Source of the DNA: Myxococcales bacterium | GTDB lineage: Bacteria > Myxococcota_A > UBA9160 > UBA4427 | Assembly: GCA_022563535.1 (NCBI GenBank) | Contig: JADFNE010000005.1 | Location: 46,397-110,396, forward strand | Direction: 5' to 3' | Length of the DNA stretch: 64,000 nt | Shown here: one piece after another, positions 29,421 to 63,999 of the stretch | How the letters are laid out: every line of letters starts with the position of its first letter | Position numbering within the stretch: position 1 is the first letter of the stretch | Position numbers and translations under genes: made by a program | The notes under the pieces: model-generated | Seen by the model: the letters and a program-made list of their open reading frames with translations, nothing else | Databases searched by the model: none | What the model was told of the DNA's origin: nothing

Positions 29421-29984
29421 GTGTTCCGCGTCGCATGGAGTTTACTCGGCGCGGTCTTTACCTACACCAAGATCGGTTGGTGGGGACTCGTCCTGCCGCG
29501 GATGCAAAAGCATCTCGTGGTGGCCCAGGCGATCGTGCACGGCGACGACGGCATCCTGCTCGCGGTGAGGCGTGATCTACAGGGGTGGGAACTCCCGGGC
29601 GGAAAGATCGAGGAAGGCGAGACCGCGGAAGCCGCAGTGTGTCGCGAAGTCCGAGAGGAGACGGGCCTCATTGTCGAAGTCGATCGATACGTGGGTGACT
29701 ACGTGCGCACCGGCTTTCGACCTCATACGGCCAAGATTTTTCTGTGTCGACAAGTAGGCGGGGCGTTCCAGACCAATTGGGAAACGCTCGATCTGCGCTG
29801 GTTTCCCCTCGAGTCGCTCCCCGACACCCTCTTCGGGTGGTTTCGTGAACCCCTGCGCGACGCGTTTTCCGGCTCGGCTCCGCCACCCGTAACCAAGACC
29901 AACCGCCAGGGAGTCCGCGAAATTCTGGCGGCCGTCCAGATCGACCTGCGAATGCGCATCTCCAACAACCAGGCAGGCTCCTAA
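29421..29984 (+). CDS. NUDIX hydrolase
   Basis: Nudix box GGKIEEGETAEAAVCREVREETGL. GTG start at 29421; an alternative ATG at 29502 (MQKHLVV) is possible. Confidence 0.8.
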   Translation: MFRVAWSLLGAVFTYTKIGWWGLVLPRMQKHLVVAQAIVHGDDGILLAVRRDLQGWELPGGKIEEGETAEAAVCREVREETGLIVEVDRYVGDYVRTGFRPHTAKIFLCRQVGGAFQTNWETLDLRWFPLESLPDTLFGWFREPLRDAFSGSAPPPVTKTNRQGVREILAAVQIDLRMRISNNQAGS

Positions 29985-32233
29985 ATTGAGGGCGGTTGGC
30001 CGATCGACGCGGGGTCGATTCTGTAGAGCGATAGATTTCCGTGTTGGTATGCGGGAGGATGGGCTACTCCCATTTCCGAGAGTTTGAGTTTGCACATGCG
30101 AAACTTGCGATGCGCAGACTTCGAACCGGAGTCCTTCCCCTTCAACAAAAACCAACGCACGTCGTTGCTGGTCAGGAACTGCGCGCGGTCCCGGTTCGTC
30201 CCCCGACAGAAGCCAGCGAGATCTCGCCAATTGAATCTGACCCCCGCCCCGAGTCGGCTGTTGAATAGCACTCGCTTTGTGGTGAAAGGCAGGACGCCCG
30301 CAGTCGGACCCTGAGGAATGATCCAGCTCTCCCCGTCTATTCGCCAGGTGTTCGATGGCACCAACACCCCTTCCGCATCATCGATGTGAGACTCGATGGC
30401 GCGCAAGTCGGCGAGATCGGCCGACGACACCGGCCCCCAGAAACTCTTGGCCGGATCGACGGATTCACTCTGGCCGTAAAGCAAGAAGGGGAGAATCGCG
30501 GCCAGTGCGGCGAATCCCGGGGTGATCCATGTCTTGGCGAAGAACGCTTCGACTCTCGCGCTTCGAGGGATCGCGGCAATCACCCAGCCAATGCTCGCGA
30601 GAAGGATCATCCCCTGGGCCACCAGCCCGACGTGACGGGTCGCGATTTCGCAATATTCGCGCAGGAGAACGAATTCGTATCCGCGACCTGGGGCGAGGCC
30701 TTCGCTGAAGTGTATTACCGCGATCTGTGCGAAGCCTCCAAACGACGCGCCGAGTGCGATCCCGAGCCACAAACCCATGGCCGCGCGGGCTTGCTGCGGC
30801 ATGTTTTCTTGCGAATGTTTGCGCATTGAAATTCGCATTGAAATTCGCATTGAAATCAAAGCCGTGGCGACGCTGATCCCGATGGCGAGGTGCACGGCGA
30901 TGCGGCCGGGGTCGCTGAATAGATCGTCGAAGAACGGGAAGCGCCAGCCCGCACCAAGCCAGCCGCGTGCGCCGTTCGCGAGAGAAAAGGCGAACAGGCG
31001 CAGCACGTCACTCCATTCTGCGTAGAGAACGGGTCGCAATTTTTCCACGACGAGTTCGTCGCTGGAGAGCAGTCCGAGTGATGCCGCCTGGTCGGGGGTC
31101 ATGATGCCGAAGAGATCGAGGAACCCCTGGCCCAGTCCCCCGAGCTGTGCGCTCCACTGGGCCACGATCCACGGGTCGCCAAGGGCGATGGCAAGCGGAA
31201 GACCGACTGCGACTGCAAGGGTCTTTGCGATGGGCAATGCAACGCGCGGCGCCGGCACAGGTGTCGCTGCAGCGCGAGAGAAGCCCCGCGAAATGAGCAA
31301 CACCGGAACGACGAACACCGCCAATTGCACCACGAGGACTGCATTCAATGCGAGCAGCAACAGCGCTGTGGCGGGAAGCATCGCCCATGAGAGCCAGCGC
31401 AGAGTCGGGCTCTGCAGAGCCCCGCCGGCTACGAACAAGAGGTACGGGAACATCAGGGCTGCACCCGAAGCAAAGCGCGGTGTGCCACCGAGATCGTATT
31501 CCGGGTAGATCATGCGACTGACCGCAAAGCTGTAGAACAGCAGGGCGCCGATCAGCAGCGCCGCGAGGATTCGGCTTCGACCTGGCTCTACGCCGTCGCG
31601 GCTGGCCTGCGCCCGGATCAGTTCCGCGAAGACCATGCACGGGAGAAATGCCTGAAGGAACGGCATGAGTTTGATCCAGGGCCCGAGCGGTCCGATTGCG
31701 CCAGCTGCGCTCCACTGGGCTGCCAGCAGGTGAAACGCTTTGGGGTAGAGGGCCAGAATGCGGGTGCCCCGCTCGACGAGTGGCAGATGGTTGGCGTCGA
31801 GAATCTGTGCGGTCCAGTAGATGTGTTGATGGGTGTCGAGGCCCAGCGCTCCGAGGTGCGACGACGAAGAGTAGACGAGGGCAACCTTCAACACGGCGGC
31901 GCTGCCTCCGAGCGCGAGCATCAACCCCTCGCGATCGATGCCGGGTCCGAAAAAGGATTCGTGTTCGCTTCGTCTCGCGGCAATTGCCAGGGCGACTGCT
32001 GTGCCCGTCCAGATCAAGACTCCAATGGGCAGCGAGTGGCCGACGAGTTGTTCGAGTCCGGCGTTCAGTGGCAAAATCAGATAGCCCGCAAACCACAGGA
32101 GCATCTGGGCGGCGTACACCGACGTGAAGGGCAGGGAGGAAAGCGGACGTGGGTGAAAGCGGCGAAGCAACAGGCTTCCCAGCAGCAGATGAACACCACC
32201 CGCAAGCGCAACCGAAAGTGCAAAGGGCGACAA
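29981..32233 (-). CDS. Large polytopic membrane protein of unknown function with C-terminal extracytoplasmic domain
   Basis: 750-aa ORF with many hydrophobic helices over the first ~560 aa and a soluble C-terminal ~170 aa. I cannot assign a family. Overlaps the NUDIX gene stop by 4 nt, tail to tail. Confidence 0.7.
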   Translation of the reverse strand: MSPFALSVALAGGVHLLLGSLLLRRFHPRPLSSLPFTSVYAAQMLLWFAGYLILPLNAGLEQLVGHSLPIGVLIWTGTAVALAIAARRSEHESFFGPGIDREGLMLALGGSAAVLKVALVYSSSSHLGALGLDTHQHIYWTAQILDANHLPLVERGTRILALYPKAFHLLAAQWSAAGAIGPLGPWIKLMPFLQAFLPCMVFAELIRAQASRDGVEPGRSRILAALLIGALLFYSFAVSRMIYPEYDLGGTPRFASGAALMFPYLLFVAGGALQSPTLRWLSWAMLPATALLLLALNAVLVVQLAVFVVPVLLISRGFSRAAATPVPAPRVALPIAKTLAVAVGLPLAIALGDPWIVAQWSAQLGGLGQGFLDLFGIMTPDQAASLGLLSSDELVVEKLRPVLYAEWSDVLRLFAFSLANGARGWLGAGWRFPFFDDLFSDPGRIAVHLAIGISVATALISMRISMRISMRKHSQENMPQQARAAMGLWLGIALGASFGGFAQIAVIHFSEGLAPGRGYEFVLLREYCEIATRHVGLVAQGMILLASIGWVIAAIPRSARVEAFFAKTWITPGFAALAAILPFLLYGQSESVDPAKSFWGPVSSADLADLRAIESHIDDAEGVLVPSNTWRIDGESWIIPQGPTAGVLPFTTKRVLFNSRLGAGVRFNWRDLAGFCRGTNRDRAQFLTSNDVRWFLLKGKDSGSKSAHRKFRMCKLKLSEMGVAHPPAYQHGNLSLYRIDPASIGQPPSI
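30822..30857 (-). repeat. AT-rich in-frame 12-bp tandem repeat cgcattgaaatt x3 (encodes ISMR x3)
   Basis: Read directly from the sequence. The protein shows ALISMRISMRISMRKHSQ. Confidence 0.9.
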
Positions 32234-32430: not shown

Positions 32431-32928
32431 CTAGCGCCGCTGCTCTCGCAGTCCGCTGGCCTCCCACTCCTTACTGAGTTGCGCGAGCTTGCGTGAAAAT
32501 TCGTCGAAGGAATCGTCGAAGGACAAAATGATTTCGGTGGTGCGTGGAATATCGTCGCCGTTGAGGAGTCCGCGATATCGATTCAGGTTGGCCAAGATGG
32601 CTTCAGCAACTTTGAGGGCGCGCTTTTCGGTCTTGATCAGGGGAGACTGCAGGGTGTAGACGTTGTTGCGACCCCAGAGGCTTTCGTCGCGCACGATCCC
32701 GATCTCGCGGTAGACGCCGTTGATCGGATCGAAGTTGTACTCGACGCGAACCTCTTTGAAGATGTCGGAGTTGCCCGTATAGAAGCCGCGTTCTTTTTCG
32801 ACTTTGCCGAGTTGACGGCAACGGGGGCAGTAAAACGTATCACCGTGATTGAGCAGGAAGACACCCTTTGCGTAGTCTTCGCAATCGGTGTTCTCGCAAT
32901 AACCTACACCGCGTTTCATGCTTGCCAT
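32431..32928 (-). CDS. Orphan zinc-ribbon protein, unknown function
   Basis: MASMKRGVGYCENTDCEDYAKGVFLLNHGDTFYCPRCRQLG (Cx4C...CxxC) followed by a ~120-aa unassignable domain. The gene is visibly AT-richer than its neighbours but has coherent codon usage. Confidence 0.7.
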   Translation of the reverse strand: MASMKRGVGYCENTDCEDYAKGVFLLNHGDTFYCPRCRQLGKVEKERGFYTGNSDIFKEVRVEYNFDPINGVYREIGIVRDESLWGRNNVYTLQSPLIKTEKRALKVAEAILANLNRYRGLLNGDDIPRTTEIILSFDDSFDEFSRKLAQLSKEWEASGLREQRR

Positions 32929-33642: not shown

Positions 33643-33759
33643 TCAACCGCTATTTGATTTTCGACTCTTAGACAGGGAGTTGCACTCTCGAAGCAGGCTG
33701 ATTCCGTAGAGAACGAGCGGCAAAATGGTGACGGTATAGGCTGCGATCAGGTAGTTCAC
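33643..33759 (-). CDS. ccmD: Heme exporter protein CcmD (38 aa, below ORF-track cutoff)
   Basis: The GTG at 33759 overlaps the ccmC stop (GTGA). My hand translation gives VNYLIAAYTVTILPLVLYGISLLRECNSLSKSRKSNSG: a single TM helix with the size and position typical of CcmD. Confidence 0.6.
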   Translation of the reverse strand: MNYLIAAYTVTILPLVLYGISLLRECNSLSKSRKSNSG

Positions 33760-34508
33760 GACGCCTCCTCACCTGCGGCCAGGCCCTCGGCTTTGTCCCA
33801 TGCGGCCCGGGTGCGCAGGCTTTCGACCTCCCAGCGAAGCAACACCAGATAAGCAAAGACGAAGAACAGCGCGAGGTTGCCCATCAGGAAGGGCAGACCC
33901 ATGCCACTGCCGAGACTCCCTTGCTCGAGGTTTTCGGGGTGGATGGAGCGGTTGTCGAAAATTTCAATGATGTAGTAATTCAGCGGGATCAACACGACTC
34001 CCACGATCCCGTAGACCGCCGCAAAGCGCGCAGTTCTGGTGCCGCTCCCGCTAAAACTCCGCAGAAGCATGTAGGCCAGATAGATGAACCAGAGGAGCAG
34101 CGTTACGGTAAGCCTGGGATCCCAGGACCACCATTTACCCCACGTGCCCTTGGCCCAGATGGGTCCGGTCACGAGCATCAGGGTGCAAAAAAATACCCCG
34201 ACCTCGGTGGCCGCGATCGCCATGCGGTCAAAGTCTTCTCGATCCGTCCACAGGTAGAGCGCCCCACCGATCGCTGTGATGATGAAGCCCAGATAGGCGC
34301 CATAGGCCAGGGGGGGGTGGACGTAGAGAATCTTTTGGATGATGCCCTGCACGCTGTCGATCGGGGCCTGAACAACGGTCCATGCGTAAACCGCGAGCAG
34401 CAAAGCCAGCGGGCCGCCGAGCCAACCTCGAAGTCGAGCCACACCCAGCTCGAGGTTGGACCGCTGCGTCGTGGACTGCTCCTGGCTCGTCGGATCGTTC
34501 ATGAACAA
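33756..34508 (-). CDS. ccmC: Heme exporter protein CcmC
   Basis: WWD motif WAKGTWGKWWSWDPRLT. Multi-TM protein. Confidence 0.9.
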   Translation of the reverse strand: MFMNDPTSQEQSTTQRSNLELGVARLRGWLGGPLALLLAVYAWTVVQAPIDSVQGIIQKILYVHPPLAYGAYLGFIITAIGGALYLWTDREDFDRMAIAATEVGVFFCTLMLVTGPIWAKGTWGKWWSWDPRLTVTLLLWFIYLAYMLLRSFSGSGTRTARFAAVYGIVGVVLIPLNYYIIEIFDNRSIHPENLEQGSLGSGMGLPFLMGNLALFFVFAYLVLLRWEVESLRTRAAWDKAEGLAAGEEAS

Positions 34509-34569: not shown

Positions 34570-35235
34570 TCACTCGTCGAGGATGTATTCGAAACCCAGA
34601 AACGAGACGACCAGATATATACCGTCGATTACCAGCAGCAGCTGAACGACTTCGAATGAAACGTTGCCCTCGACGATCAGCGAGTGGGTCCCCGCCACGA
34701 CACCGGCCAGCACCGGGAACAATGCCGGAAGTAGCAGGATCGGCAACAGCACCTCGCGCAGCCGAGTTCGCACACTCATCGCGGAAAACAGCGTGCCCGC
34801 GGTGCAGATTCCAAAGCTCCCCAGGGCGACAATGCCCGCCAGTTCGGGGGCGATTCCGAGCAAGTTGAGATCGAAGGCCAGGGCGAATGCAAAGGCCGTC
34901 GCGATCTGCACGATTCCGATCAGGCAGAAGTTTGCGAGCGCCTTGCCGACAAAGATCCAGCCTCGCTCGCCTGGAGCCAATGCGAGCCCGGACAGGGCGT
35001 CGTTTTCCAGCTCGAGGGCAAAGGATCGGTTGAGTCCGATGTTCGCCGCAAAGACATAGGCCACCCACAGGAGCCCGGCCGCGTTTTCCTCGACACCGGC
35101 CCGGGTGCCACTTGGCAGGGCGAAGTGAAAGACCACGACCACGAGCAAGGAGAAGAGCAACATCGCGATCACTCGGTCGCGAGAACGCCATTCGGTGAGC
35201 AGGTCCTTCCAGAGGATGGCGAGCGCAACGTTCAT
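34570..35235 (-). CDS. ccmB: Heme exporter protein CcmB
   Basis: MNVALAILWKDLLTEWRSRDRVIAMLLFSLLVVVVFHFAL; six-TM pattern. ATGA overlap with ccmA. Confidence 0.85.
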   Translation of the reverse strand: MNVALAILWKDLLTEWRSRDRVIAMLLFSLLVVVVFHFALPSGTRAGVEENAAGLLWVAYVFAANIGLNRSFALELENDALSGLALAPGERGWIFVGKALANFCLIGIVQIATAFAFALAFDLNLLGIAPELAGIVALGSFGICTAGTLFSAMSVRTRLREVLLPILLLPALFPVLAGVVAGTHSLIVEGNVSFEVVQLLLVIDGIYLVVSFLGFEYILDE

Positions 35236-35960
35236 GCACCGATTCCTCCCGCTTGTGCTGGACCGAGCACACTGGCTTCGAGATTCTCCGGGGTGATCTC
35301 CGCGCCGCTGGCCCGGAAGGCGACTTTGCCGCGAATCAGGGTGTCGACCCGGTCAGCCAGCTCTGCCGCCCGGCGCAGATCATGGGTGATCAGCACGAGT
35401 GCCCGGGACTGACTGCGCAGGGTATCGAGTCGAGCCGCCAGGCGATCGGCCGCTCGCCGGTCGAGCCCCGTGAAGGGTTCGTCCAGCAGGATGATCTGCG
35501 GATCGTGAATACACGCCCGGGCAATCGCGAGTCGCTGCGCCATCCCGCGCGAAAATGTTCCGACCCGAACCTCGGCCACTTCGAAGAGCCCCTCGGCTTC
35601 GAGCAGGGCATCCGCGCGCTCCCGCGCCCCGGTGACTCCATAGAGTTTCGCCGCAAACAGCAGATTCTCTCGGGCGCTCAATTCCGAATAGAGCAGCGTC
35701 GCGTGCCCGACATAACCGATGACCGACCGCGCCTTGCGGGGCTCGACTTCATTCCCCGTGCTTTCGACGAGTTTGACTTCGCCGCCGCTGGGCCGGGACA
35801 GCCCGGCGAGTATGCGCAGCAGCGTGGTCTTGCCCGCGCCATTGGGTCCGAGAATGGCGTGAATGGTTCCGCGACCCACTTCGAGATCGACTCCGCGCAA
35901 AGCGGCCAGGGCACCGAAGCGCTTGACCAATCCTCGGGCGCGTAGCGCCGCTTCGCTCAC
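35232..35960 (-). CDS. ccmA: Heme ABC exporter ATP-binding protein CcmA
   Basis: GLVKRFGALAALRGVDLEVGRGTIHAILGPNGAGKTTLL; FSRGMAQRLAIARA; ILLDEPFTGLD. GTG at 35960 overlaps the upstream stop (GTGA). The ORF track extends to 36068. Confidence 0.85.
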   Translation of the reverse strand: MSEAALRARGLVKRFGALAALRGVDLEVGRGTIHAILGPNGAGKTTLLRILAGLSRPSGGEVKLVESTGNEVEPRKARSVIGYVGHATLLYSELSARENLLFAAKLYGVTGARERADALLEAEGLFEVAEVRVGTFSRGMAQRLAIARACIHDPQIILLDEPFTGLDRRAADRLAARLDTLRSQSRALVLITHDLRRAAELADRVDTLIRGKVAFRASGAEITPENLEASVLGPAQAGGIGA

Positions 35961-37912
35961 CCGTTTGCTTTCACGGCAGCTTCCGCCCCGCCGTCGGTGT
36001 CTCGAGAAGCCCCGCACTTCGGGCAGAACTTCCAGCCGATGTTCAGCGTGCTGCCACAGTGTTGGCAACTCTCGCTGTGCGCGGGTTCGGCCGGATCTCG
36101 CGTACTGCTCGATTGGGGAGCCGTCGTCCCGGCAGCCGGGGCCGATTGCTTCGCGTCGCGTTCCTGTTGCAGCAACTCGAGCGCGCGCGCGCGCAGTTCG
36201 CTGCGCATGGTCTGGTATGAGGCCTCTTCGATCTTCGAGGTTTCGAAGTCGTGTTCCAGGTCGCGAATCGCTCCGTAGATCAGGTCGCGTTCAGTGCGAA
36301 TCTGCGCTCGTTCATACTGGTCGGCACGTGATCGTCTACCCTGGACCAGGGGCGACACGATGAACCAGACGCCGAGAGCGGCCAGGGCGCTGGTGGCCAA
36401 CAGGTTGGTATTGCGACCCCCGGAACCGCGATTGATCAATTCCATGTCGAGCGACACGACTTCACCCTCATCGATCGAGAACGCTTCCCGGTGTAAGTAG
36501 ATCCGCGTGCCCTGGCGAAACGGGCGAAGTCGATGAAGGCGTTCAGTCTTGACGACGATTCCGGTATCCGCGATCAGCACGTTCAATACTTTGACGGCGC
36601 CCGGCAGACGTATGTCGATCCGTGGCTTGCCGTCGACGACCGGCAGACGGTAGGAAAACCCCAATCGCGCTTCACCTGGAGACAACGGGCCGATCAATCC
36701 TAGACCGCCGGGAATGGGCAGCAAACCCAGGTTTTGCGCTTCTTCGCTGTAGCCGCGCAATTCGGCGTTGGGGGGCAACGCAAAGCTGAGCAACGGAGCT
36801 TCTATGCTGCCGGTGAGGTGAGCGCCGGGTGCCACCTCGAGATGAAGTTCGAAATTGACCTGCAGGAAGGTGTCGTCGGCGTCCAACCAGTAGTCGGCGC
36901 GGGGAAATGAAATCGCGCTTCGGTCGTTTGACATGTTCGGCAGCGATACGGCCACTGCGAAGCTGCTGCCCGCCGAGACCGGTCCGAGGGAGAGCGCGTG
37001 AAAGGACCGTTCGCCCAGGGTTACATCCGCACCGGTCGCAACCCCTGGGATCGTTAGCGTCGGGCCGTCGGGCGGGTACAAGATACTCGCGCGGCGACTC
37101 CCCGAATCGAGTTTCCAGCGGAGCTTCATCTCCTCCCCCGCATCTCGCACGATGGGGACCAGATAGCGAAAGCGCAGCTCGAGTCCGTCGGCGTAGATCG
37201 GGCCCCAGAAGATCAACTCGTCAGCGTGCAACTCGTAGCCGTCGGCGACTCCGCTGAGGCTGGTGTCGATTTGTTCCGCGCCCGCCGGAAGTGTGACGCG
37301 AAACGGCGGTTGCTTGCCGCTGCGGTTTTCGGGCGCGACAAAGATCACCTCGTCGCCAGAATTTTCGAGTTGGTGAACTTCTTCGATTCCGAGACTCGCA
37401 CCGATCCACTCGACTCGCAGGGACGATTCTCCGACGGAGACTCGCGAGGAATCATCGCTCGGTTCGTCGACGTCGATCACCAGGACAATTTCGTTCTGGC
37501 CGGGGTCGAACGCGACCCGCTTGCCGTAGGGAATGCCGCCATAGTTGGCGCCCACCAGGTAGGTGATCCCCGATGCACTCGATAGATCGGCAAAGCTGAA
37601 CGTCCCAGAACGATCCGTCAGGGTGGTGCGTATCCCCGGACTGCCGTCTGCGGCGAGGGAGTAGAGCACGATGGTAGAACCCTCGGTCTTCTCGTTGCCG
37701 CCGGGATGCAGCAACTGGCCGTAGATCACCGCGGTTCCGGGCGGGACGTCGGAGACCCCGCTCGCATTGCCGAGAGACTCATGCGGAGCCTGGGCCGCAC
37801 TGGTACCGACCCAAATGATCGGAACAAGGAGCAGCACCAGCGGCGACACCAGCACCAACAACGAGGCTCTGCAGTGACGAACGGACCGGTTGCCCGTGGC
37901 TGGGTTTCGCAA
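35957..37912 (-). CDS. Bitopic protein embedded in the ccm operon: signal peptide, CarboxypepD_reg-like domain, large periplasmic region, TM helix, cytoplasmic coiled coil + zinc ribbon
   Basis: Signal peptide ASLLVLVSPLVLLLVPIIWVGTSAAQA. GTAVIYGQLLHPGG...TLTDRSGTFSFADL. TM helix LLATSALAALGVWFIVSPLV. IRDLEHDFETSKIEEASYQTMRSELRARALELL (CcmI-N-terminal-like helix). CQHCGSTLNIGWKFCPKCGA. TTG start 2 nt after the ccmF stop. Confidence 0.75.
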   Translation of the reverse strand: MRNPATGNRSVRHCRASLLVLVSPLVLLLVPIIWVGTSAAQAPHESLGNASGVSDVPPGTAVIYGQLLHPGGNEKTEGSTIVLYSLAADGSPGIRTTLTDRSGTFSFADLSSASGITYLVGANYGGIPYGKRVAFDPGQNEIVLVIDVDEPSDDSSRVSVGESSLRVEWIGASLGIEEVHQLENSGDEVIFVAPENRSGKQPPFRVTLPAGAEQIDTSLSGVADGYELHADELIFWGPIYADGLELRFRYLVPIVRDAGEEMKLRWKLDSGSRRASILYPPDGPTLTIPGVATGADVTLGERSFHALSLGPVSAGSSFAVAVSLPNMSNDRSAISFPRADYWLDADDTFLQVNFELHLEVAPGAHLTGSIEAPLLSFALPPNAELRGYSEEAQNLGLLPIPGGLGLIGPLSPGEARLGFSYRLPVVDGKPRIDIRLPGAVKVLNVLIADTGIVVKTERLHRLRPFRQGTRIYLHREAFSIDEGEVVSLDMELINRGSGGRNTNLLATSALAALGVWFIVSPLVQGRRSRADQYERAQIRTERDLIYGAIRDLEHDFETSKIEEASYQTMRSELRARALELLQQERDAKQSAPAAGTTAPQSSSTRDPAEPAHSESCQHCGSTLNIGWKFCPKCGASRDTDGGAEAAVKANG

Positions 37913-37914
37913 AC

Positions 37915-39885
37915 TCAGGGCTGTTTCCCCGGACGGATGATCTCAGGATGGGGCCACATAATGGCGATCGATCCCGCGATCGCAATCGCGGCCCCGATCC
38001 ACAACCAGTTGACCAGTGGGTTGCGATGAATCTTGAAGGTCGCCGAACCGTCGGGTTCGACTTCGTTGAGCACCAGATAAAGATCTTCGAGCCAGGTCGA
38101 ATAGATGGCGGGAAGCGAGGAGGGCTGCTGTTCGAGCCAGTACAGCCGCTTCTCCGGCAGCATCGTCGCCACGGGTTTGCCCCGGTGATAGAGCGCGACC
38201 CGGGCGGTGGCCCCTCCGTAGTTCTGTTCCAGGATGGCGTTGGCCGTGAGGTAGCGAAGTTCGAACTGGTCGAGTTTGACCGACTCCCCGGGTTTGAGGT
38301 TTTCGAGGCGCTCCTGGTTGAACGCCGCGCCCGAGACCGCAATGAACATCAACACGATGCCCAGATGCACGATGTAGCCGCCGTAGCGTCGCTGGTTTCG
38401 CTGCAACAAGGTAAAGAACGCCCGTACGGGGTTCTCTCCCCGCTTTCGCATGCGAGCGCCGATCGCGCGGTGGTACTCCTGGGTGATTGTCGCGATGACA
38501 AACGCGGAGAGGGTCCAACAACCGATCGCCCAGACCGTCGCAGTGCTCCAGAACGTCGCCGCCAGGACCACGCCGACCACCACGCCGAACACCGCCGGGC
38601 CGACGAACTGGCGGCGGACACTGGCGACGGTGGCCCGTCGCCAGGCAATCAAGGGACCCACTCCCGTCAGGAAGAGCAGGAACAGGGTGAGCCAGCCTTC
38701 GAGAGAATTGAAGAACGCCGGACCGACGGTGGTCCGGTTGCCGCTCAGGGCTTCGGAAATCACCGGCAGCAGCGTGCCCCAGAATACGACGACGAGAATG
38801 GCCATGAACACCCAATTGTTCATCATGAAGCCCGCTTCGCGGGAGACCATCGACTCGAGTTTGTGTTGGCTCTTGAGTTGGGGTAGACGGTACAAGAGCA
38901 TGCCGAAATAGAGCGTCGCCGTGACCACGACGAAGGAGAAGAAGATTGGCGTGAACAGACCGTTGTTCGTGAAGGCGTGAACCGACTGCACGATCCCACT
39001 TCGCGTCAGGAAGGTGCCGAACACGCAAAGCAGGTAGGTGATTCCGATCAACACCAGGTTCCAGGTCTTCAGCATGTCGCGCTTTTCCTGGATCATCACC
39101 GAATGCAGATAGGCGGTGCCGGCGAGCCAGGGCATCAAGGCTGCGTTCTCGACCGGATCCCAGCCCCAGTACCCGCCCCAGCCGAGGATCTCGTAGGCCC
39201 AACGACCCCCGAGAACCAGGCCACCGCCCAGGCATGTCCAGGCGAACAGGGTCCAACGGCGCGTCGTCTGAAACCATTGGGTGCCGAGTTCCCCGGTCAC
39301 GAGATTTGCAAACGCGAAGGCGTAGGGGACGATGAAACCGGTGAAGCCCGCGTAGAGGACCACCGGGTGAATCGACATCAGCGGATGCTGGAGCAGCGGG
39401 TTCAGGCCATTGCCGTCCGAGCGCACATCGAGGGGGCCTACGCGATCAAAGGGCAGGGAGACGAAGCTGCATAGGCTCAAAAAGAAAATCAGATTGACCA
39501 GGATGCACATCACCACCCAGGGCATCAGGGTTCGATTGTCGTGCCGGTTCAAGAACACCGCCGCCGCGCCGTAGAGTGCGACCATCCAACCCCAGAGCAG
39601 CAGCGATCCGGCTTGCCCACCCCAGAGCGCCGCCAAACGAGAATTCAGTGACATCGCCCGGGCGGAGTGTTGGGCGACGTAGGCGAGGCTGAAATCGTTG
39701 GTCGCCAGGGCGTAGAACAACGCCAGCATGGCAACGGTGATTGCGCCGAACACCACGTAGAGCGATCGCTCGGCTACCTGGGTCCACTCATCGCGCTTGT
39801 TCAAACCGGCGGCCACACTGACGATGCAGCCGAGAATCGCTATGAGCCAGCCGAAGGTCAGCGCTTGTTGGCCGATGTCTGCCAT
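37915..39885 (-). CDS. ccmF: Cytochrome c-type biogenesis heme lyase CcmF
   Basis: WGGYWGWDPVENAALMPWL (WWD). Polytopic, 656 aa. Confidence 0.95.
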   Translation of the reverse strand: MADIGQQALTFGWLIAILGCIVSVAAGLNKRDEWTQVAERSLYVVFGAITVAMLALFYALATNDFSLAYVAQHSARAMSLNSRLAALWGGQAGSLLLWGWMVALYGAAAVFLNRHDNRTLMPWVVMCILVNLIFFLSLCSFVSLPFDRVGPLDVRSDGNGLNPLLQHPLMSIHPVVLYAGFTGFIVPYAFAFANLVTGELGTQWFQTTRRWTLFAWTCLGGGLVLGGRWAYEILGWGGYWGWDPVENAALMPWLAGTAYLHSVMIQEKRDMLKTWNLVLIGITYLLCVFGTFLTRSGIVQSVHAFTNNGLFTPIFFSFVVVTATLYFGMLLYRLPQLKSQHKLESMVSREAGFMMNNWVFMAILVVVFWGTLLPVISEALSGNRTTVGPAFFNSLEGWLTLFLLFLTGVGPLIAWRRATVASVRRQFVGPAVFGVVVGVVLAATFWSTATVWAIGCWTLSAFVIATITQEYHRAIGARMRKRGENPVRAFFTLLQRNQRRYGGYIVHLGIVLMFIAVSGAAFNQERLENLKPGESVKLDQFELRYLTANAILEQNYGGATARVALYHRGKPVATMLPEKRLYWLEQQPSSLPAIYSTWLEDLYLVLNEVEPDGSATFKIHRNPLVNWLWIGAAIAIAGSIAIMWPHPEIIRPGKQP

Positions 39886-40023: not shown

Positions 40024-40494
40024 CTAGAGGCTCGTCGCATCCTTTTGCGGCATTTCCGCGTTGGCCTCGAACTTCGAGGGACATTTGGCGAGAACGTTGT
40101 CGGCCATGAACACGCGATCGGTTCCGTTGATCGCGAGGGTTCCCTCGACCACGACGTCGGCACCGTCCTGAAAAAGATCAGGTGTCTCGAGCCCCTGAAA
40201 CAGCACAGCGAGGGTCGCCACTGAGGGGCCGCTCTTGTGGGGTGGGTCGTTCTGGACCTCGAACGTCACCTGCTTGGCCTCGAGGTCGCGGTCGATGCTG
40301 CCCGGGGCCACATAGCCGTGCACCCGCAGCGCTTTGCCCACTGAATCCTCGGCAAGCGCACTGCTGGCGAGAAACTCATCCAGGGTCTGGAAGTACTGGA
40401 AAGTCGGCGAGCCCTCGAGGTTCGAATACCCGTACCAGCCCAGGAGACTGAAAATGATCGTTGCGCCGACTGCGAGTTGAACGCCCTTGGACAT
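40024..40494 (-). CDS. ccmE: Heme chaperone CcmE, variant with Cys instead of the heme-binding His
   Basis: The ATG at 40494 gives MSKGVQLAVGATIIFSLLGWYGY (TM anchor). OB-fold part RVHGYVAPGSIDRD...VTFEV...VVVEGTL. C-terminus NVLAKCPSKFEA where E. coli has LAKHDENY. I checked the minus-strand codons by hand. Confidence 0.85.
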   Translation of the reverse strand: MSKGVQLAVGATIIFSLLGWYGYSNLEGSPTFQYFQTLDEFLASSALAEDSVGKALRVHGYVAPGSIDRDLEAKQVTFEVQNDPPHKSGPSVATLAVLFQGLETPDLFQDGADVVVEGTLAINGTDRVFMADNVLAKCPSKFEANAEMPQKDATSL

Positions 40495-40818
40495 GTTTTC
40501 CTGTGCTCCGACTGCTTCCGACGAAGGCGATCCGGTTCTTGACGCCGAGCCACCTGGCGCGTGTTGGGGGCCGTGGAGCCTATCATCGGGGTATTCTGGT
40601 GTCAAAGGGGAGAATAAAATTTTCCGTTCAATTTCAGTATGTTGCGGCGGCATTCGCCTGGGTTCCTCGGGCGGGGCTGCATTCGAAGCCCGGGCGTCTG
40701 GAGAGGGTATGCCGGGATTCGCTGACGCGGTCTCGAACACCGGAATCGATCGTGCGCTCGCACAACTCGCTAGTGTGCTCCCCGACCTGGAGTCGCGGAT
40801 CGGCTCGCAGTTGGAGGG

Positions 40819-41434: not shown

Positions 41435-42199
41435 TCAGCGAAACAGGTCTTGTGAAGGAAGGCGCAGAAGGTCGCGGGTCTTGCCCGACCCCGATACGAT
41501 GATGCCCTCGACGAACACGGCGGGGATGCCCGAGTCCTTGACCATCAAGATGCCCGCGCCCGCGGCGATTTGATCGACCAGCGCAGTGGTCGTCGACTGA
41601 AGCTCGCGGCCCTCGAGGTCGAGACTGCCTCGGTGATCGATGATCGGCGCCATGCCGGCGCTTCCGATCGCGACGTCCACCAACCCCTCGCGCCACGGTC
41701 GGCCGAAGGTGTCGGTCACAACGACTCCGAGTTGTTCACTCCCGCGAGCGACCAGCGCTCGATGCAGTGCAGCGGCCGAAGCATCGCTGTCCAAGGGCAG
41801 CAGTACCGCGATGTCGTCTCCCAGTGAATTCGAGAGGTCGACTCCGGCGTTGGCACAAACGAAGCCGTGGTGGGTTTCGCTGATCATGATGCCGTGACCG
41901 CGTCGTACAATGCGGGCTGTTTCGCGCAATACGACCTCGACGTGACGCGGGTCTTTGTCGTCTTCTTTTGCAATCGTCTTGGCTTGTTCGCTCGGCTCCA
42001 CGTCGTTCAGGTCGACCAGTCGGTCTTCGGCTTTCGATACGATTTTTTGACACAACACGAGGATGCCCCGGCTCAAGACCACGCCCGAGCGTTCGGCGGC
42101 AGCGGCCAGGATCCCGGGCAGATCGTCGCCGGGCGAAATTTTTCCGATTCCCCGCAGTGCAATGAAGCGCAGTCCGTCGTCGCTGATTTCACACGTCAC
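41435..42199 (-). CDS. cofE: Coenzyme F420-0:L-glutamate ligase CofE
   Basis: ISPGDDLPGIL...VLCQKIVSKAEDRLVDL...RRGHGIMISETHHGFVCANAGVDLSN. Confidence 0.85.
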   Translation of the reverse strand: MTCEISDDGLRFIALRGIGKISPGDDLPGILAAAAERSGVVLSRGILVLCQKIVSKAEDRLVDLNDVEPSEQAKTIAKEDDKDPRHVEVVLRETARIVRRGHGIMISETHHGFVCANAGVDLSNSLGDDIAVLLPLDSDASAAALHRALVARGSEQLGVVVTDTFGRPWREGLVDVAIGSAGMAPIIDHRGSLDLEGRELQSTTTALVDQIAAGAGILMVKDSGIPAVFVEGIIVSGSGKTRDLLRLPSQDLFR

Positions 42200-42864
42200 T
42201 GCGCTCTACCTCGACCCCAGCCGAGGGCGTTGAAAATGTCGCGGGTCTGTTTGCCACCCCCGGTCTGGGCCATAAAGTCGTCGACATCTTCGGGCCGATC
42301 CAGATCGATCCAGAGAGACGGAAGGGAGAGTTCGCGGTACGGGATCCCGCGTTGTTTGGCTTGTTCGCGATGGGCTCGACAGCTCTGCGGACCAAAGCAA
42401 GAGGGGATCACGTCGGCTGGGGTGCGCAGAAGCGCTGCCGTGCCGCCATCGCGCGATGGTGCGAGCACGACCTGGCCACTGGTTGCCGGCGGATCCAGTT
42501 GTTGATCCTGCTGTTGATACAGACGCTCGAGTTCTTCGGGTAGCGCCCCCGCAACGTCGCCCAGAATCACCAGCGAACTTTCTCCAGCTGCGGCGAACTC
42601 GCGGGTGGCGGCGTCGATCGACTCGTTCAATCCCGGATCCGTGCGCAACAGCACGATTGCCCCCGCGGCGCGCGCGCATTCCGCAACCGATTCATCGGGG
42701 GTCACGACCGCGGTCCGATCAACGGACGGCGTTTCCTGTAGCGCCTGCACGATATCCCTCAACATGGCGAGACATAGATGCTCGAGATCGCTGCGTCCGA
42801 GTCGCGACGAAAGCCGCGTCTTTCCCAGGGAGAGATGTTTGACCGGAATGATCGCGAGACTCAT
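42196..42864 (-). CDS. cofC: F420 biosynthesis guanylyltransferase CofC/FbiD
   Basis: The ATG at 42864 overlaps the cofD stop (ATGA). MSLAIIPVKHLSLGKTRLSSRL...VVTPD...ILGDVAGALPEEL. The ORF's upstream extension is Arg-rich. Confidence 0.8.
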   Translation of the reverse strand: MSLAIIPVKHLSLGKTRLSSRLGRSDLEHLCLAMLRDIVQALQETPSVDRTAVVTPDESVAECARAAGAIVLLRTDPGLNESIDAATREFAAAGESSLVILGDVAGALPEELERLYQQQDQQLDPPATSGQVVLAPSRDGGTAALLRTPADVIPSCFGPQSCRAHREQAKQRGIPYRELSLPSLWIDLDRPEDVDDFMAQTGGGKQTRDIFNALGWGRGRAQ

Positions 42865-43868
42865 CGCAAACTCAGTGCCAGTTCGAGAGCAGTCGCGGCC
42901 AGCTGCGTCGAAATGTCGAGATCGGTCATCAACGTCTGTGTCGAGACCGCGCGCATTCCCAGTTCTTCTATGTCTGCGAGTTGGGCCGCATCCACTCGAT
43001 CGAAGACGAACCCTTGTGCGAGGTCTCGATACAGCCCGGCCACACCCAATGCAGAGACCTCGCAGCCGATGGCGCGAAGCAAGTGGTCCGCTGGCCCCTT
43101 TACCGGAGCGCCGCCGATGATCGGTGAGATTGCAACGACCGGAGCGCCCGAGTTGACAATGGCTTCGCGGATTCCTGGCACGGCCAGGATCGGTCCGATA
43201 GACACCACCGGATTGCTCGGGCAAATGATCACGATCTCAGCAGTCGCGATGGCAGCGAGAACTCCGGGTGCAGGGGTGGCGGCGCGCGCCGCGTCGAGAT
43301 GGACCGCGCGAACGTTCGCGGGAGATTTTTCTCGCACAAGATACTCTTCAAAGTGTAGACTGCGCCCGTCGTTCAATTCGACCAGGGTGGGGGCTGGGTC
43401 TTCGCTCATGGGAAGAATGCTGCAGCTCAGGCCGTGGGTTCGGCGCAGGCTTTCACTCAGCTGCGCAAGTCCATCGCCCGCGCGCATGCGCAGGGTACGG
43501 TGCAGGCAATGGGCAAAGTCGCGATCTCCGAGTCGGAACCAGGTTTCGTGTCCGAGGGTTCCGAGTTCTTCCATCAACGAAAAGGTGTCCCCGGCGAGTC
43601 CGAAGCCTTTGCCAGGGTCTACCGCGCCAGCGAGGGTGTAGGTCACGATGTCCAGGTCGGGGGCGACGTACACGCCATAGAACTCGCGATCGTCTCCAGT
43701 GTTCACGATCGTCGTGAGTTTCGCGGGGTCGGTCGCGCGAACCAGCCCACGCAACATTCGCGCCGCGCCGACGCCACCGGCCAGTGCCGCGACCCGGCCA
43801 GAGAACACGCGAACGGGTTCGATGTTGGTGTCGTCGGGGCTGGCCTTGTCAGCGTTCTGGGGGGGCAC
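42861..43868 (-). CDS. cofD: 2-phospho-L-lactate (LPPG:FO) transferase CofD/FbiA
   Basis: VAALAGGVGAARMLRGLV...IVNTGDDREFYGVYVAPDLDIVTYTLAG...ICPSNPVVSIGPIL. Confidence 0.85.
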   Translation of the reverse strand: MPPQNADKASPDDTNIEPVRVFSGRVAALAGGVGAARMLRGLVRATDPAKLTTIVNTGDDREFYGVYVAPDLDIVTYTLAGAVDPGKGFGLAGDTFSLMEELGTLGHETWFRLGDRDFAHCLHRTLRMRAGDGLAQLSESLRRTHGLSCSILPMSEDPAPTLVELNDGRSLHFEEYLVREKSPANVRAVHLDAARAATPAPGVLAAIATAEIVIICPSNPVVSIGPILAVPGIREAIVNSGAPVVAISPIIGGAPVKGPADHLLRAIGCEVSALGVAGLYRDLAQGFVFDRVDAAQLADIEELGMRAVSTQTLMTDLDISTQLAATALELALSLR

Positions 43869-44428: not shown

Positions 44429-44461
44429 GAAACCCGATCGAAACCCGATCGAAACCCGACG
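44429..44461. promoter_or_regulatory. Head-to-tail 11-bp repeat GAAACCCGATC x3 in a divergent intergenic region
   Basis: Copies at 44429, 44440 and 44451 (the last ends ..GACG). The array abuts the first candidate start (GTG 44461) of the 653-aa gene. Confidence 0.5.
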
Positions 44462-46422
44462 TGGATGAGGGCATCCGCGCTGGGCACGCTGAGAAGAGGG
44501 GGAGGAGTCGGACCGCGGTGGATACGTGTGAATCGAGTTACGAAAGAATTCCATTTTCCGGGGCAGGTCTCGAGCAGAGTTCTGCAAGGTGGCGAGGCGG
44601 AATCATCTGCACGATCGCGCTTGCGGCGTTCGCTTCGCTGGTATCCGCATCTCGGGTCAGCGCCCTGGTAGAGCCTGGCTTGGTCGGCGATTGGAACCTG
44701 GGCATGGCCGTGCAGGGGCAAATGGAACCCCGAAAGCCTGCGGAGGCGAGGGTCATCTGGCGTCGAAGTGACGACTTCAGTGGCCGGGGCGATGCGGGGT
44801 ACGTCGCGGTCGCCGCAGATTCGAGCCGAGGTTGGTTGGCCGTCGGGGGCGAAGCTGGTCTTTCGGTCGGCCGCCCACTTCGCGACCTGCGCGCCCGGTC
44901 ACTCGCGATGAAGGGAGTTCGCGACCTACGCTTCGGGGCCGGTGGCGAGTTGTACATCGCCACGACTCGAGGGTTCTGGGTTCTCCCAGCCCTTTCTTCG
45001 TCAGCCTTTGATGCTGGGAAAGTCAATCATCTTCAAGAATTCAGCCCTGGGAGGGGAGAGGGTTCGCGTCGGGTAAATCGGGTTGCGACGGGACCGGACT
45101 TCGTCGCACTGGCGACCGACGACGGTGTGTTCGTTTCGAGCCCTTGGAAAGCGAGCCACGACAACCCGGCACAAGCGCCGCGCCTGAAGTGGACACGCCT
45201 CAACGCAGGCTTTCCTAACGGTCCCGTCTCTCTTGTAGCGGTTGAGCAAAAAGAGGATGCGACCTACTTGTGGACTGTGGTGGGTCCCGCGCTGTGGCGG
45301 ATCCGTCTATCTACCAAGAGCACTACCAAGAGCACTACCAAGAGCACTACCAAGAGCACTACCAAGAGCGGTACTACGACCGCTACTATGGTCGCGGTTT
45401 CTGATCTTCGGGAAGTGGTTGTGCCCGGTCGAGTCCATGGCGAACTCCCGGTGGATCTCGTGGCAGACCTTCCCGCCGAAGGTGTTGCACTCGTTTATGC
45501 CGACTCGATCTTTTTTCGCAACCGCGATGTGTCCTCGGGGCGTCACGCGTGGGAGGTCGTGCGCCCAGTTCTGCCGCCGGGTAGTTCAATTGCGCGACTC
45601 GGACACTGGCGCGGACGCTATTGGCTGACGACTGATCGCGGGATTTTGCTTTCGCACTCTCTGGCTGGTCCCTGGCGAAGGGCCGAGCCGCCGGCGGGGC
45701 GCGCGTCCGCCCAAGCTGCAGCCGTCCTGGGCAGCCGCCTCTATGTTGCGAGCGCCGGGGGGTTGCTCTATGCCGAGCCGCTTCACGGCACCGCGGTTCG
45801 TGCGACGCGAACCCGAACGACGCGAGCGCCGTCCATCGTCGCCGTCCATCGCATCGCTCTTCGCCACCAGGGTCTCGAGCCCCGGGTCTTCAAGGATGCC
45901 TGGCGCGGAGTTCGGCGGCGGGGGTGGTTGCCTGCCGTCGGGCTGCGCCTGGGAGTAGATCTCGACACCGGGCGCAGCTCCGACGACGACGAGGTCTTCG
46001 TATCCGGCGACTACCACCTGCTGCGCGACAAAGACGAAGACCGAAGCCTCGATCTCGGCGCTTCGATCACAATGACTTGGGACTTTCGAGATCTCGCCTA
46101 CGAACCCGACCAGATCGATCTTTCCCGAGAGTCGCGTCTCGTGATCGGGTTGCGCGACGATGTGCTCGATGAGATCAATCAACTCTACTTCGAACGGCTG
46201 GCGATCCTGGGCGATCTCGCAGCACTGCGTGAAGGATCCGAGGGTGAGTCCGATTCGAGTGGCACCGACACCGCCGACGACTCCAAAGATCTCTCCGATC
46301 CATACGCCGCAGCCCAACTCATCGTCACCCTCGAGTTGCGTCTCGAAGAACTGACCGCCGGGCTCGACGCCTGGACGGGAGGTTGGTTCGGCAAACAACT
46401 CGAGTCATCCGTGTCTTACTGA
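44461..46422 (+). CDS. Secreted repeat protein, unknown function (BNR/Ycf48-like beta-propeller suspected) with internal TKST repeat
   Basis: Signal-like IICTIALAAFASLVSASRVSA. Recurring motifs YIATTRGFWV, LATDDGVFVSSPW, LTTDRGILLSHSLAGPW, YVASAGGLLYA. Exact start uncertain. Confidence 0.65.
   Translation: MDEGIRAGHAEKRGRSRTAVDTCESSYERIPFSGAGLEQSSARWRGGIICTIALAAFASLVSASRVSALVEPGLVGDWNLGMAVQGQMEPRKPAEARVIWRRSDDFSGRGDAGYVAVAADSSRGWLAVGGEAGLSVGRPLRDLRARSLAMKGVRDLRFGAGGELYIATTRGFWVLPALSSSAFDAGKVNHLQEFSPGRGEGSRRVNRVATGPDFVALATDDGVFVSSPWKASHDNPAQAPRLKWTRLNAGFPNGPVSLVAVEQKEDATYLWTVVGPALWRIRLSTKSTTKSTTKSTTKSTTKSGTTTATMVAVSDLREVVVPGRVHGELPVDLVADLPAEGVALVYADSIFFRNRDVSSGRHAWEVVRPVLPPGSSIARLGHWRGRYWLTTDRGILLSHSLAGPWRRAEPPAGRASAQAAAVLGSRLYVASAGGLLYAEPLHGTAVRATRTRTTRAPSIVAVHRIALRHQGLEPRVFKDAWRGVRRRGWLPAVGLRLGVDLDTGRSSDDDEVFVSGDYHLLRDKDEDRSLDLGASITMTWDFRDLAYEPDQIDLSRESRLVIGLRDDVLDEINQLYFERLAILGDLAALREGSEGESDSSGTDTADDSKDLSDPYAAAQLIVTLELRLEELTAGLDAWTGGWFGKQLESSVSY
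45313..45372 (+). repeat. In-frame 12-bp tandem repeat accaagagcact x4 perfect + 1 imperfect (encodes TKST repeats)
   Basis: Read directly from the sequence. The protein shows STKSTTKSTTKSTTKSTTKSGTTT. Confidence 0.9.
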
Positions 46423-61363: not shown

Positions 61364-62431
61364 TTGCAGCAACTGAGGAATTCTGGATTGACGAGCGAGT
61401 CAGCAAAATACACGGCGACCGAGCGGTTCCTCCGCAGTTGTCGAGGAGAGCCAGTCGATCGACCCCCGGTCTGGTTGATGCGTCAGGCCGGACGCTACCT
61501 GCCGGAGTACCGCCGGGTGCGCGAGGGAGTGAGCTTCGTCGAGATGTGCCGCAGTGTCGACCGGGCGGTCGAAGTCTCCCTGCAGCCGATCGATCTGGTG
61601 GGCAGCGAAGCGGTGATCATGTTTCAGGACATCTTCACGCCAATCCCCGGCATGGGAGTGGAACTCGACTTCGCTCCGGGGCCGGTGATCGCCGAGCCGA
61701 TTCGCAGCTCCGATCAAGTGGAACGGTTGCGGGTTCCCGACCCAACCGAGAGCGTTCCATTCGTTTTTGAAATCCTGCGAACCTTGCGGCGGGAACTCGA
61801 GGGGCGACAAATACCGTTGCTCGGATTCGCCGGGGCGCCCTTTACGTTGGCCGCCTACATGGTCGAGGGGCGCGGCTCAAAGGACTTCACCCAAATCAAG
61901 CGCATGATGCACCGCGAACCCAAATTGCTGAATGCACTGCTCGACAAGTTGACCGACTGCAGCGTGAGCTACCTCAACGCCCAGATCGAGGCGGGAGCTC
62001 AGGCGGTGCAACTCTTCGATACCTGGGCTGGGTTGCTCACTGCGGCGGAGTACCGCGAATGGATCCTGCCCCGCCACCAGCAGATCGCCGAGAGGGTCCA
62101 CCGGGACCGAGCTCCACTGATTCTCTACATGAACAATGGCGCCCATTTGCTCGAAGACTCCGTGGAGTCAGGGGCAGATGTTCTCTCGCTGGATTGGCGA
62201 GTGGATCTCGCAAACGCCGCTCGCAACTACGGCGACCGCGTGGCACTCCAGGGCAATCTCGATCCTGCCGCACTCGCCGCGCCCAGAGAGAAGATCGCGA
62301 CGATGGTGCAAAAGATGTCTCGGGACGCCGAACCCGCAAAGGGTTACATCGCAAATCTCGGTCACGGCTGTCTTACCGACACCCCGGTCGACGGAGTGCG
62401 CGCCTTTACCGAAGCAGTCCGCTCGCTGTAG
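61364..62431 (+). CDS. hemE: Uroporphyrinogen decarboxylase
   Basis: RFLRSCRGEPVDRPPVWLMRQAGRYLPEYR...FDTWAG...NLGHG. Confidence 0.9.
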   Translation: MQQLRNSGLTSESAKYTATERFLRSCRGEPVDRPPVWLMRQAGRYLPEYRRVREGVSFVEMCRSVDRAVEVSLQPIDLVGSEAVIMFQDIFTPIPGMGVELDFAPGPVIAEPIRSSDQVERLRVPDPTESVPFVFEILRTLRRELEGRQIPLLGFAGAPFTLAAYMVEGRGSKDFTQIKRMMHREPKLLNALLDKLTDCSVSYLNAQIEAGAQAVQLFDTWAGLLTAAEYREWILPRHQQIAERVHRDRAPLILYMNNGAHLLEDSVESGADVLSLDWRVDLANAARNYGDRVALQGNLDPAALAAPREKIATMVQKMSRDAEPAKGYIANLGHGCLTDTPVDGVRAFTEAVRSL

Positions 62432-63490: not shown

Positions 63491-63657
63491 GGACCCAGCA
63501 TGCCACAGGCCGCCTTCTCCCGCGGGTGGGTCGGGTGCCGCAAATCGAAAAAGAATGCTTTTGGTAAATCGGCGAAGGCTGTACGCTCTGGTTAACGACC
63601 GTCGGCGCATGTCTACGTTCGGAAGGTAGTGCGCACTAGATAACGAGTGAGGCACGG

Positions 63658-63999
63658 ATGGCATCGGTTCTCATCGTCGAAGACGAAAGCTCGCTGCGCG
63701 AAACCCTCGCGCGTTTTTTGATTCGAGAAGGTCACGAAGTAATCACCGCGGCGAACGGTCGCGAGGCCTTCGATCTCGGAATTTCAGCTAGCCCCGATGT
63801 GCTGGTGACCGATTGGATGCTCAAGAACCACATCCATGGACTGCACGTCGCCGACGCTTTGAAAGCCGTCAATCCCTCCCTACACACAATTTTGATCACC
63901 GGGTTTCCGTCGAAGGATCTGCTCTCTGAGTCTGATCGATGCGGCGTGTTGCAGTTGCTCGAGAAGCCCTTTGATTTGAATGATCTCAAACGGGCAGTC
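63658..63999 (+). CDS. Response-regulator receiver-domain protein, 3' end cut by window edge (not in ORF track because no stop is reached)
   Basis: My hand translation from ATG 63658 gives MASVLIVEDESSLRETLARFLIREGHEVITAANGREAFDL...DVLVTDWMLKN...ILITGFPS...LEKPFDLNDL. Confidence 0.85.
   Translation, partial: MASVLIVEDESSLRETLARFLIREGHEVITAANGREAFDLGISASPDVLVTDWMLKNHIHGLHVADALKAVNPSLHTILITGFPSKDLLSESDRCGVLQLLEKPFDLNDLKRAV

Follow-up and report, generated by a model that had tools for sequence, protein, structure and literature searches.

CcmI, also known as CycH, corresponds to the C-terminal half of CcmH in E. coli and has NrfG as a paralog, and in Rhodobacter its N-terminal membrane module holds the protein in the CcmF/H heme-ligation complex. 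It is built of two transmembrane (TM) helices joined by a short cytoplasmic link, which is leucine-zipper-like in Rhodobacter, and of a periplasmic TPR domain that follows them and chaperones the apocytochrome (PMC3884852, PMC3601427). In the variant of cytochrome c maturation (Ccm) termed System I*, CcmE is of the Cys type, and the F variant of its motif, as in CPSKF, is rare (PMC3601427). CcmH is lacking from about two thirds of the systems with a Cys-type CcmE, and the System I* of Desulfovibrio works without CcmH and CcmG, with CcmI enhancing cytochrome production there (PMC3601427). Here we describe a gene, called X in what follows, that lies between ccmF and ccmA in 64,000 nucleotides (nt) of DNA from a Myxococcales bacterium (GenBank assembly GCA_022563535.1, contig JADFNE010000005.1, positions 46,397 to 110,396 of the forward strand); this whole stretch is referred to as the window, and positions are counted from its first letter. 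From the list of open reading frames (ORFs), its homologs and an AlphaFold2 model, X encodes a type I single-pass membrane protein of 651 amino acids (aa) and occupies positions 35957 to 37912 of the minus strand, as do all of the parts of X located below. We consider it highly probable that X is a component of the Ccm machinery, and we put the chances at about even that it is, more narrowly, an accessory subunit of the Cys-CcmE form of System I (System I*), of the CcmI type but without a TPR domain, that works on the CcmF side.

Gene X within the ccm operon

The window carries a minus-strand operon of seven genes in the order ccmE, ccmF, X, ccmA, ccmB, ccmC and a ccmD-like ORF, in which X is tied to its neighbours on both sides. 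In the ORF list the 651-aa frame starts with the TTG at 37912, and when the sequence is read at this junction (37913 to 37917) the ccmF stop codon TGA (37917-37915) is separated from that TTG by a 2-nt spacer, gt; at the other end the X stop codon TGA (35959-35957) and the ccmA start codon GTG (35960-35958) overlap in a GTGA (35957 to 35960), so that both junctions lie as the preliminary description of this DNA had given them. In related loci the ccmF-X junction ranges from an overlap of 4 nt to a gap of 2 nt (-4 to +2 nt), and the 4-nt overlap of X with ccmA recurs in L001, L002, L004 and L013. The long start of X is backed by long basic n-regions in the homologs P0003, P0005, P0007 and P0022, with the caveat that the gene call for a database copy of 99% identity (P0001) is shorter by 15 residues. 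The GC content is even along the whole ccm operon, and when 1.84 billion cluster representatives were searched exhaustively with HMMER, homologs came up in 178 clusters (50% identity) at E<1e-30, the best 150 of which are mostly full length at about 560-670 aa; X is a real gene.

An alignment of 59 family members, 26-73% identical, underlies the residue counts given below as well as the AlphaFold2 model of X, which has a mean pLDDT of 87. A word-index protein search with X alone and with the 59-member profile returned about 30 close relatives and, as new distant relatives, only P0179 and the fragment P0180, and a scan of genome contigs with X alone gave three true loci and three other matches confined to the zinc ribbon. 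No match was obtained when the TM-plus-helix segment of X was compared by tblastn with plasmids, and Rfam and promoter/terminator scans of the ccm operon returned nothing informative.

Ten X loci were examined (the window, L001, L002, L004, L007-L009, L013, L015 and L016); L013 is a fragment of 3 kb, limited to X, ccmA and the end of the gene before X. The order ccmE(CPSKF)-ccmF-X-ccmA-ccmC was found in all ten (in part in L013), down to 28% identity, with start and stop codons that mostly overlap or nearly abut, and the CPSKF motif is present in the window and wherever else an X locus extends to ccmE. Those loci whose records are named come from metagenome-assembled genomes of Myxococcota or Myxococcales. 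The wider neighbourhood, with EngB, an aminotransferase, CofC/D/E, NUDIX and HisG, is kept as well, and therefore synteny within the Myxococcota alone could reflect shared ancestry. Linkage of the homologs to ccm genes in other genomes had been proposed as a check in the preliminary description; all ten loci are so linked, and both halves of X recur in a second phylum.

The CcmI-type module and the split form in Anaerolineae

The chain of X crosses the membrane through a helix at residues 500-524 (36341 to 36415), modelled as such by AlphaFold2 and oriented N-out/C-in, with the basic stretch GRRSR directly after it. A cytoplasmic helix hairpin follows (residues 529-590, 36143 to 36328), with modelled helices at 529-557 and 563-590, which carries the CcmI-N-type motif RDLEHDFETSKIEEASYQTMRSELRARA and an invariant aspartate, D555. 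TIGR03142, the model of the CcmI N-terminus, matches residues 506-593 of X, that is, both the TM helix and the hairpin, at E 2e-5 and 24.9 bits against a cut-off of 29.3, over profile positions 5-90 of 118. The same model is matched at E<0.01 by 43 of the 59 family members (best E 9.8e-8), so that what had been put forward as a reminiscence of CcmI in the TM and cytoplasmic helices of one protein now stands as a family-wide profile match.

X and CcmI have in common a TM helix followed by a cytoplasmic helix with the motif D-L-x-x-D-x-x-x-G-K-[IL]...Y...R-x-E-L, within the reach of TIGR03142; the TM helix of X shares the N-out/C-in orientation of CcmI TM1 and is likewise followed by a cytoplasmic segment. 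Both are encoded among ccm genes, and both are presumed to be non-catalytic partners of the CcmF heme lyase. They differ in that the periplasmic part of X is all-beta and N-terminal to the anchor, whereas that of CcmI is C-terminal, and in that X has a cytoplasmic zinc ribbon, which CcmI does not. X also lacks the second TM helix and the periplasmic TPR domain, and therefore, as judged from the alignments, it carries a CcmI-type anchor but is not a CcmI.

The protein ends in a C4 zinc ribbon (residues 613-636, 36005 to 36076; C616, C619, C630 and C633). Zn_Ribbon_1 (PF13240) matches residues 616-635 with 26.4 bits, above its 25-bit cut-off, and matches all 59 members, in which the four cysteines and several glycine and proline positions are invariant; the C-terminal CxxC...CxxC ribbon of the preliminary description is thus a family trait. 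In a sequence-profile search of the PDB with X, zinc ribbons were the only matches.

The distant relative P0179 proved to be a member of a large family of Anaerolineae (Chloroflexota), which includes a protein of the cultured Anaerolinea thermolimosa (GCA_001050195.2). At four of four Anaerolineae loci the operon reads ccmE(CPTKY)-ccmF-ccmH-ccmG-[Z]-[B]-ccmA-B-C-D, where Z is a TM-helix-zinc-ribbon protein of about 170-185 aa (183 aa in Anaerolinea thermolimosa) and B is a lipoprotein with a CarboxypepD_reg domain, one copy of a beta-sandwich, a TM helix and the same helix motif. An N-terminal diheme cytochrome c, consisting of two CXXCH domains, is usual in B but not universal, and the variants P0190 and P0229, which lack it, fill the same operon slot. 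When compared by hhalign, residues 505-638 of X align with the whole of Z (probability 99.0%, E 4e-18), residues 61-320 align with B (probability 99.0%, E 4e-18), and the helix of X aligns with the C-terminal helix of B (probability 96.2%, E 2e-9); in addition, one Z protein matches TIGR03142 itself at E 7.5e-4. The single sandwich of B is homologous to domain 2 of X, the first of the two Ost1-type sandwiches described below, and is without the His/Arg patch. [quoted passage not shown] CcmE is of the Cys type, CPSKF or CPTKY, at all loci with either form.

Z and B are thus each homologous to one half of X, and both stand directly upstream of ccmA in operons with a Cys-type CcmE. They differ from X in being two genes in the opposite order, in having one sandwich instead of two and a lipoprotein signal, in the frequent presence of the N-terminal diheme cytochrome c, in the absence of the Arg/His patch, and in the presence of ccmH and ccmG in the same operon. 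In public annotation they are entered as "hypothetical protein" or "c-type cytochrome".

Several features of the Anaerolineae loci were recorded along the way. Split ccmF genes occur in plant mitochondria, and ccmF was called in at least two pieces at L019 (4191-6248, 389 aa + 293 aa), L014 (4119-6186) and L018 (3979-6034), which could be a genuine split or the result of assembly frameshifts; in Anaerolinea thermolimosa (L017) it is one gene of 685 aa. At 7388-7900 of L014 the stored minus-strand call has no Pfam match and is probably on the wrong strand, the plus strand encoding Z with its zinc-ribbon motif at 7874. Large multiheme cytochrome genes lie upstream of the ccm operons, in divergent orientation, at L014 (1-2862) and L019 (1-3097), with nine CXXCH motifs in one L014 ORF and with NapC/NirT-type and MtrC-like Pfam matches.

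The periplasmic domains of X

X begins with a signal peptide (residues 1-40, 37793 to 37912) that has a basic n-region, an h-region, modelled as a helix at 18-34, and a cleavage-type motif, A-x-A|Q41, conserved in the family, Q41 being at least 90% conserved; cleavage after this motif is probable from the alignment, and of the two options in the preliminary description, signal peptide or N-anchor, the first is borne out. Domain 1 (residues ~55-150, 37463 to 37750) is a CarboxypepD_reg-like beta-sandwich. PF13620 matches the window protein itself at E 0.08, with 13.7 bits against a gathering score of 32.3, and is matched by 44 of the 59 members with a best E of 1.7e-8; in the model the strands at 58-147 form a compact sandwich with a pLDDT above 95, in agreement with the fold first suggested for this region.

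The remainder of the periplasmic region consists of domain 2 (residues 152-328, 36929 to 37459), which is the first Ost1/ribophorin I-type beta-sandwich by single-domain AlphaFold2 modelling (pLDDT 94.5) and Foldseek, and of the membrane-proximal domain 3 (residues 329-497, 36422 to 36928), its tandem duplicate by hhalign. The two copies, seen in the full model as sandwiches at 158-323 and 334-492, align over 163 columns with a probability of 99.5% and E 8.6e-23, and are a tandem duplication of about 170 aa per copy. Neither copy is covered by any Pfam or NCBIfam family. The periplasmic region is modelled as all-beta, with a pLDDT above 90, and its most conserved patch in the alignment columns is found in domain 3 (residues 449-484, 36461 to 36568), where the conserved residues are D449-T-G ... 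R458-L-H460-R-R-R463-P ... R470-x-Y472-L-H474-R-E476 ... E484; H460 and D449 are each present in 58 of the 59 members, R463 in 57 and H474 in 49.

Only five cysteines occur in X, C14 and the four of the zinc ribbon (C616, C619, C630 and C633), and none lies among the 456 periplasmic residues, where about 450 without cysteine had been predicted. Periplasmic cysteines are absent from 49 of the 59 members and form no conserved column; a thiol-redox role, as a substitute for CcmH or CcmG, was considered and is therefore excluded, in line with the earlier statement that X is not a thiol reductase.

A Foldseek search of the periplasmic structure had been recommended as a check, and its best PDB matches are Ost1 and RPN1. 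Ost1 is described as having a single TM helix and "two similar luminal domains" (PMC7226087). With the full model of X the top eight matches are Ost1/RPN1 chains of the yeast and human oligosaccharyltransferase (OST), at E 1e-14 to 8e-11 over 450-540 aligned columns, the next match having E 4e-5; with domain 2 alone the top eight are again Ost1/RPN1, with TM-scores of 0.56-0.61, and ITIH1, the N-terminal domains of M1 aminopeptidases and BDI_1141 rank after them. X and Ost1/RPN1 are both type I proteins with a signal peptide, two similar beta-sandwiches of about 170 residues on the outer side, one TM helix and cytoplasmic helices, and each is attached to a membrane enzyme whose task is to modify secreted polypeptides while they are unfolded, which for X is a proposal by analogy. 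They differ in the extra CarboxypepD_reg domain and the zinc ribbon of X, and no STT3/PglB-type gene was called at any of the X loci examined. The models thus point to a resemblance of the X ectodomain to Ost1 in fold and architecture, common ancestry not being established. Neither this duplicated fold, which occupies 350 seemingly featureless periplasmic residues, nor the split two-gene form had been part of the preliminary description.

Proposed function and wider context

If X is a CcmI-type accessory subunit, its TM helix and hairpin would dock it onto CcmF, the gene of which is translationally coupled to X; the membrane segment of CcmI plays the corresponding part in CcmFHI. The ectodomain would replace the TPR domain of CcmI and hold unfolded apocytochrome and/or holo-CcmE beside the CcmF active site, much as Ost1 is thought to act beside the catalytic subunit of OST. 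Contact would most likely be made through the Arg/His/Tyr patch of domain 3. The cytoplasmic C4 zinc ribbon is a conserved partner module, which in Anaerolineae resides in the separate small protein Z. The presence of two copies of the CcmI-type helix, one in Z and one in B, suggests that the two helices pair with each other.

It had also been suggested that X might substitute for missing CcmH/CcmI functions. The role of a CcmI-type partner is the more likely part of that suggestion; replacement of CcmH is unlikely, given that Anaerolineae have Z and B side by side with CcmH and CcmG. CcmH was found neither in the 64-kb window nor in the flanks of the X loci, and the LRCxxC motif of CcmH occurs nowhere in the window. 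CcmH (N-CcmH/Ccl2), which is absent from the X operon, resembles X in being anchored in the membrane and in partnering CcmF on the periplasmic side, a partnership that for X is proposed; it differs in that it folds into a small bundle of three helices and carries a redox-active LRCxxC motif, whereas X has an unrelated fold and no conserved periplasmic cysteine. In the literature collection searched, no paper combined "zinc ribbon" with ccm terms. The X family is probably a previously undescribed helper of cytochrome c maturation, and may be a CcmI-type accessory with a different, Ost1-like domain on the substrate side.

Several observations weigh against a CcmI-type subunit on the CcmF side with an Ost1-like ectodomain. 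The TIGR03142 score of the window protein, 24.9 bits, lies below the curated cut-off of 29.3, and part of it comes from the combination of a TM helix and an amphipathic helix. The second TM helix of CcmI is absent, since the AlphaFold2 model has the single TM helix at 500-524 and the chain stays cytoplasmic after it, and no TPR family was matched at E<=10 by any of the 59 members. The likeness to Ost1 is structural only, with 9-13% identity and a whole-chain TM-score of 0.2-0.3, which implies that the relative orientation of the domains differs from that in Ost1; ITIH1 and the N-domains of M1 aminopeptidases score nearly as high on the single domain, and Pfam Ribophorin_I (PF04597) is matched at E<=10 by none of the 59 members. 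Moreover, ccmH and ccmG stand between ccmF and the Z/B pair, which is placed at the front of the ccmABCD block, so that a partner in CcmABCD fits as well as a partner in CcmF.

The last point leads to the alternative that X is an extra subunit of the CcmABCD heme-release complex, in which the helix and the ribbon would touch the CcmA ATPase and the ectodomain CcmE/CcmC. CcmI of Rhodobacter is a binding partner of apoCcmE, and CcmFHI, CcmE and CcmABCD have been proposed to form a larger assembly (PMC3884852). The stop codon of X and the start of ccmA overlap at most of the X loci examined, the window among them, and Z and B directly precede ccmA, with ccmH and ccmG lying between them and ccmF; however, X in the window is coupled as tightly to ccmF, by the 2-nt gap, as it is to ccmA. 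The sole module of X with a detectable known relative is that of the CcmI N-terminus, a component of the CcmF/H complex, and to our knowledge the E. coli CcmABCD structures need no X-like subunit; we consider a place in CcmABCD rather unlikely. It is decidedly improbable, in our estimate, that X is a heme or electron handler for the Cys-type CcmE, whose patch would bind heme or help to break the CcmE-Cys thioether. The release of heme from this thioether is an acknowledged chemical puzzle (PMC3601427). CcmE is of the Cys type at all loci of both forms, H460 and H474 of X (58 and 49 of 59 members) lie in a patch with about six conserved arginines and one tyrosine, and in most Anaerolineae homologs the two CXXCH cytochrome c domains would do an equivalent redox job. 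Yet X matched no known heme-binding fold or motif, the single Anaerolineae sandwich is without the His/Arg patch, and the variants P0190 and P0229 fill the same operon slot without a cytochrome c, for which reason redox was rejected as the core function.

A role as a regulator or sensor, coupling maturation in the periplasm to a cytoplasmic target through the zinc ribbon, appears very improbable. The ribbon is invariant across the family, and in the PDB its sequence is matched best by the C-terminal end of 9sfa_A, a "putative regulatory protein" (E 7e-6), but this Pfam type of zinc ribbon is a generic module, X is without a DNA-binding, kinase or anti-sigma domain, no conserved regulator gene lies nearby, and the position in the operon favours a structural subunit. 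We hold it to be extremely improbable that X is an unrelated envelope protein kept in place by a gene order frozen in the lineage; EngB, the aminotransferase, CofC/D/E, NUDIX and HisG are indeed conserved too, which makes Myxococcota synteny alone weak, but both halves of X recur beside ccmA in Anaerolineae, in another phylum and among other flanking genes, and X combines a CcmI-type module with translational coupling on both sides.

The other ccm genes of the window were assigned by Pfam and NCBIfam profiles, all on the minus strand: ccmE (40024 to 40503), Cys-type with the CPSKF motif, by PF03100 (5e-21); ccmF (37915 to 39885), the heme lyase gene directly upstream of X, by PF16327 (2e-59), PF01578 (7e-33) and TIGR00353 (7e-126); ccmA (35232-35960), ccmB (34570-35235) and ccmC (33756-34508) by ABC_tran, CcmB and Cytochrom_C_asm and by TIGR01189, TIGR01190 and TIGR01191; and the 38-aa ccmD-like ORF (33643-33759) by CcmD_alt_fam at E 0.02. 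No ORF of at least 60 codons in the whole window (1-64000) holds a CXXCH heme-binding motif, and therefore the substrates of its Ccm system are encoded elsewhere. A thioredoxin candidate at 62304 was rejected as a spurious frame within hemE/hemH. These two genes, hemE (uroporphyrinogen decarboxylase, E 4e-128, 61364-62431, plus strand) and hemH (ferrochelatase, E 4e-94, 62453-63664, minus strand), lie about 24 kb away from the ccm operon.

Downstream of ccmD and on the same strand is a gene for a 165-aa protein (32431-32928, minus strand) that has an N-terminal four-Cys motif (CxxxxC ... CPRC) and belongs to no Pfam or NCBIfam family; its slot is taken by a 162-165-aa gene without a Pfam match in L001, L002, L004, L015 and L016, and it may be a part of the operon or mere shared synteny. 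It is followed on the same strand by a 750-aa ORF without a Pfam match (29981-32233, minus strand), in whose place genes of 709-744 aa are found in L002 and L004 and which is absent there in L001, L015 and L016. On the other side, just past ccmE and EngB, are cofE (F420 ligase), cofC and cofD of F420 biosynthesis (41435-43868, minus strand), which keep their place beside the ccm operon in L001, L004 and L015 and are unexpected neighbours for a Myxococcota-like lineage. Farther on, a 653-aa ORF without a Pfam match (44461-46422, plus strand) carries the short tandem peptide repeat TKSTTKSTTKSTTKSTTKS.

How System I* ligates heme with fewer parts, and whether non-orthologous replacements of CcmH and CcmI exist, has been an open question (PMC3601427, PMC9084895). 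The X family is a concrete, operon-conserved candidate, in which a membrane module of the CcmI type is combined with a periplasmic domain of a new kind, and since the cultured Anaerolinea thermolimosa carries the split form, the question is directly testable. The Ost1-like fold furthermore hints that two membrane machines, each of which modifies secreted polypeptides, may be alike in structure. That X and the split Anaerolineae pair are a bacterial counterpart, possibly a true homolog, of Ost1, that is, a substrate-holding subunit serving CcmF, is suggested by analogy and seems distinctly unlikely to us; if it were so, X would functionally replace the TPR half of CcmI in Cys-CcmE systems, the enzyme served, CcmF, would be one that acts on unfolded polypeptides leaving the Sec translocon, and this design of an accessory subunit would predate the eukaryotic OST or would have arisen independently of it.

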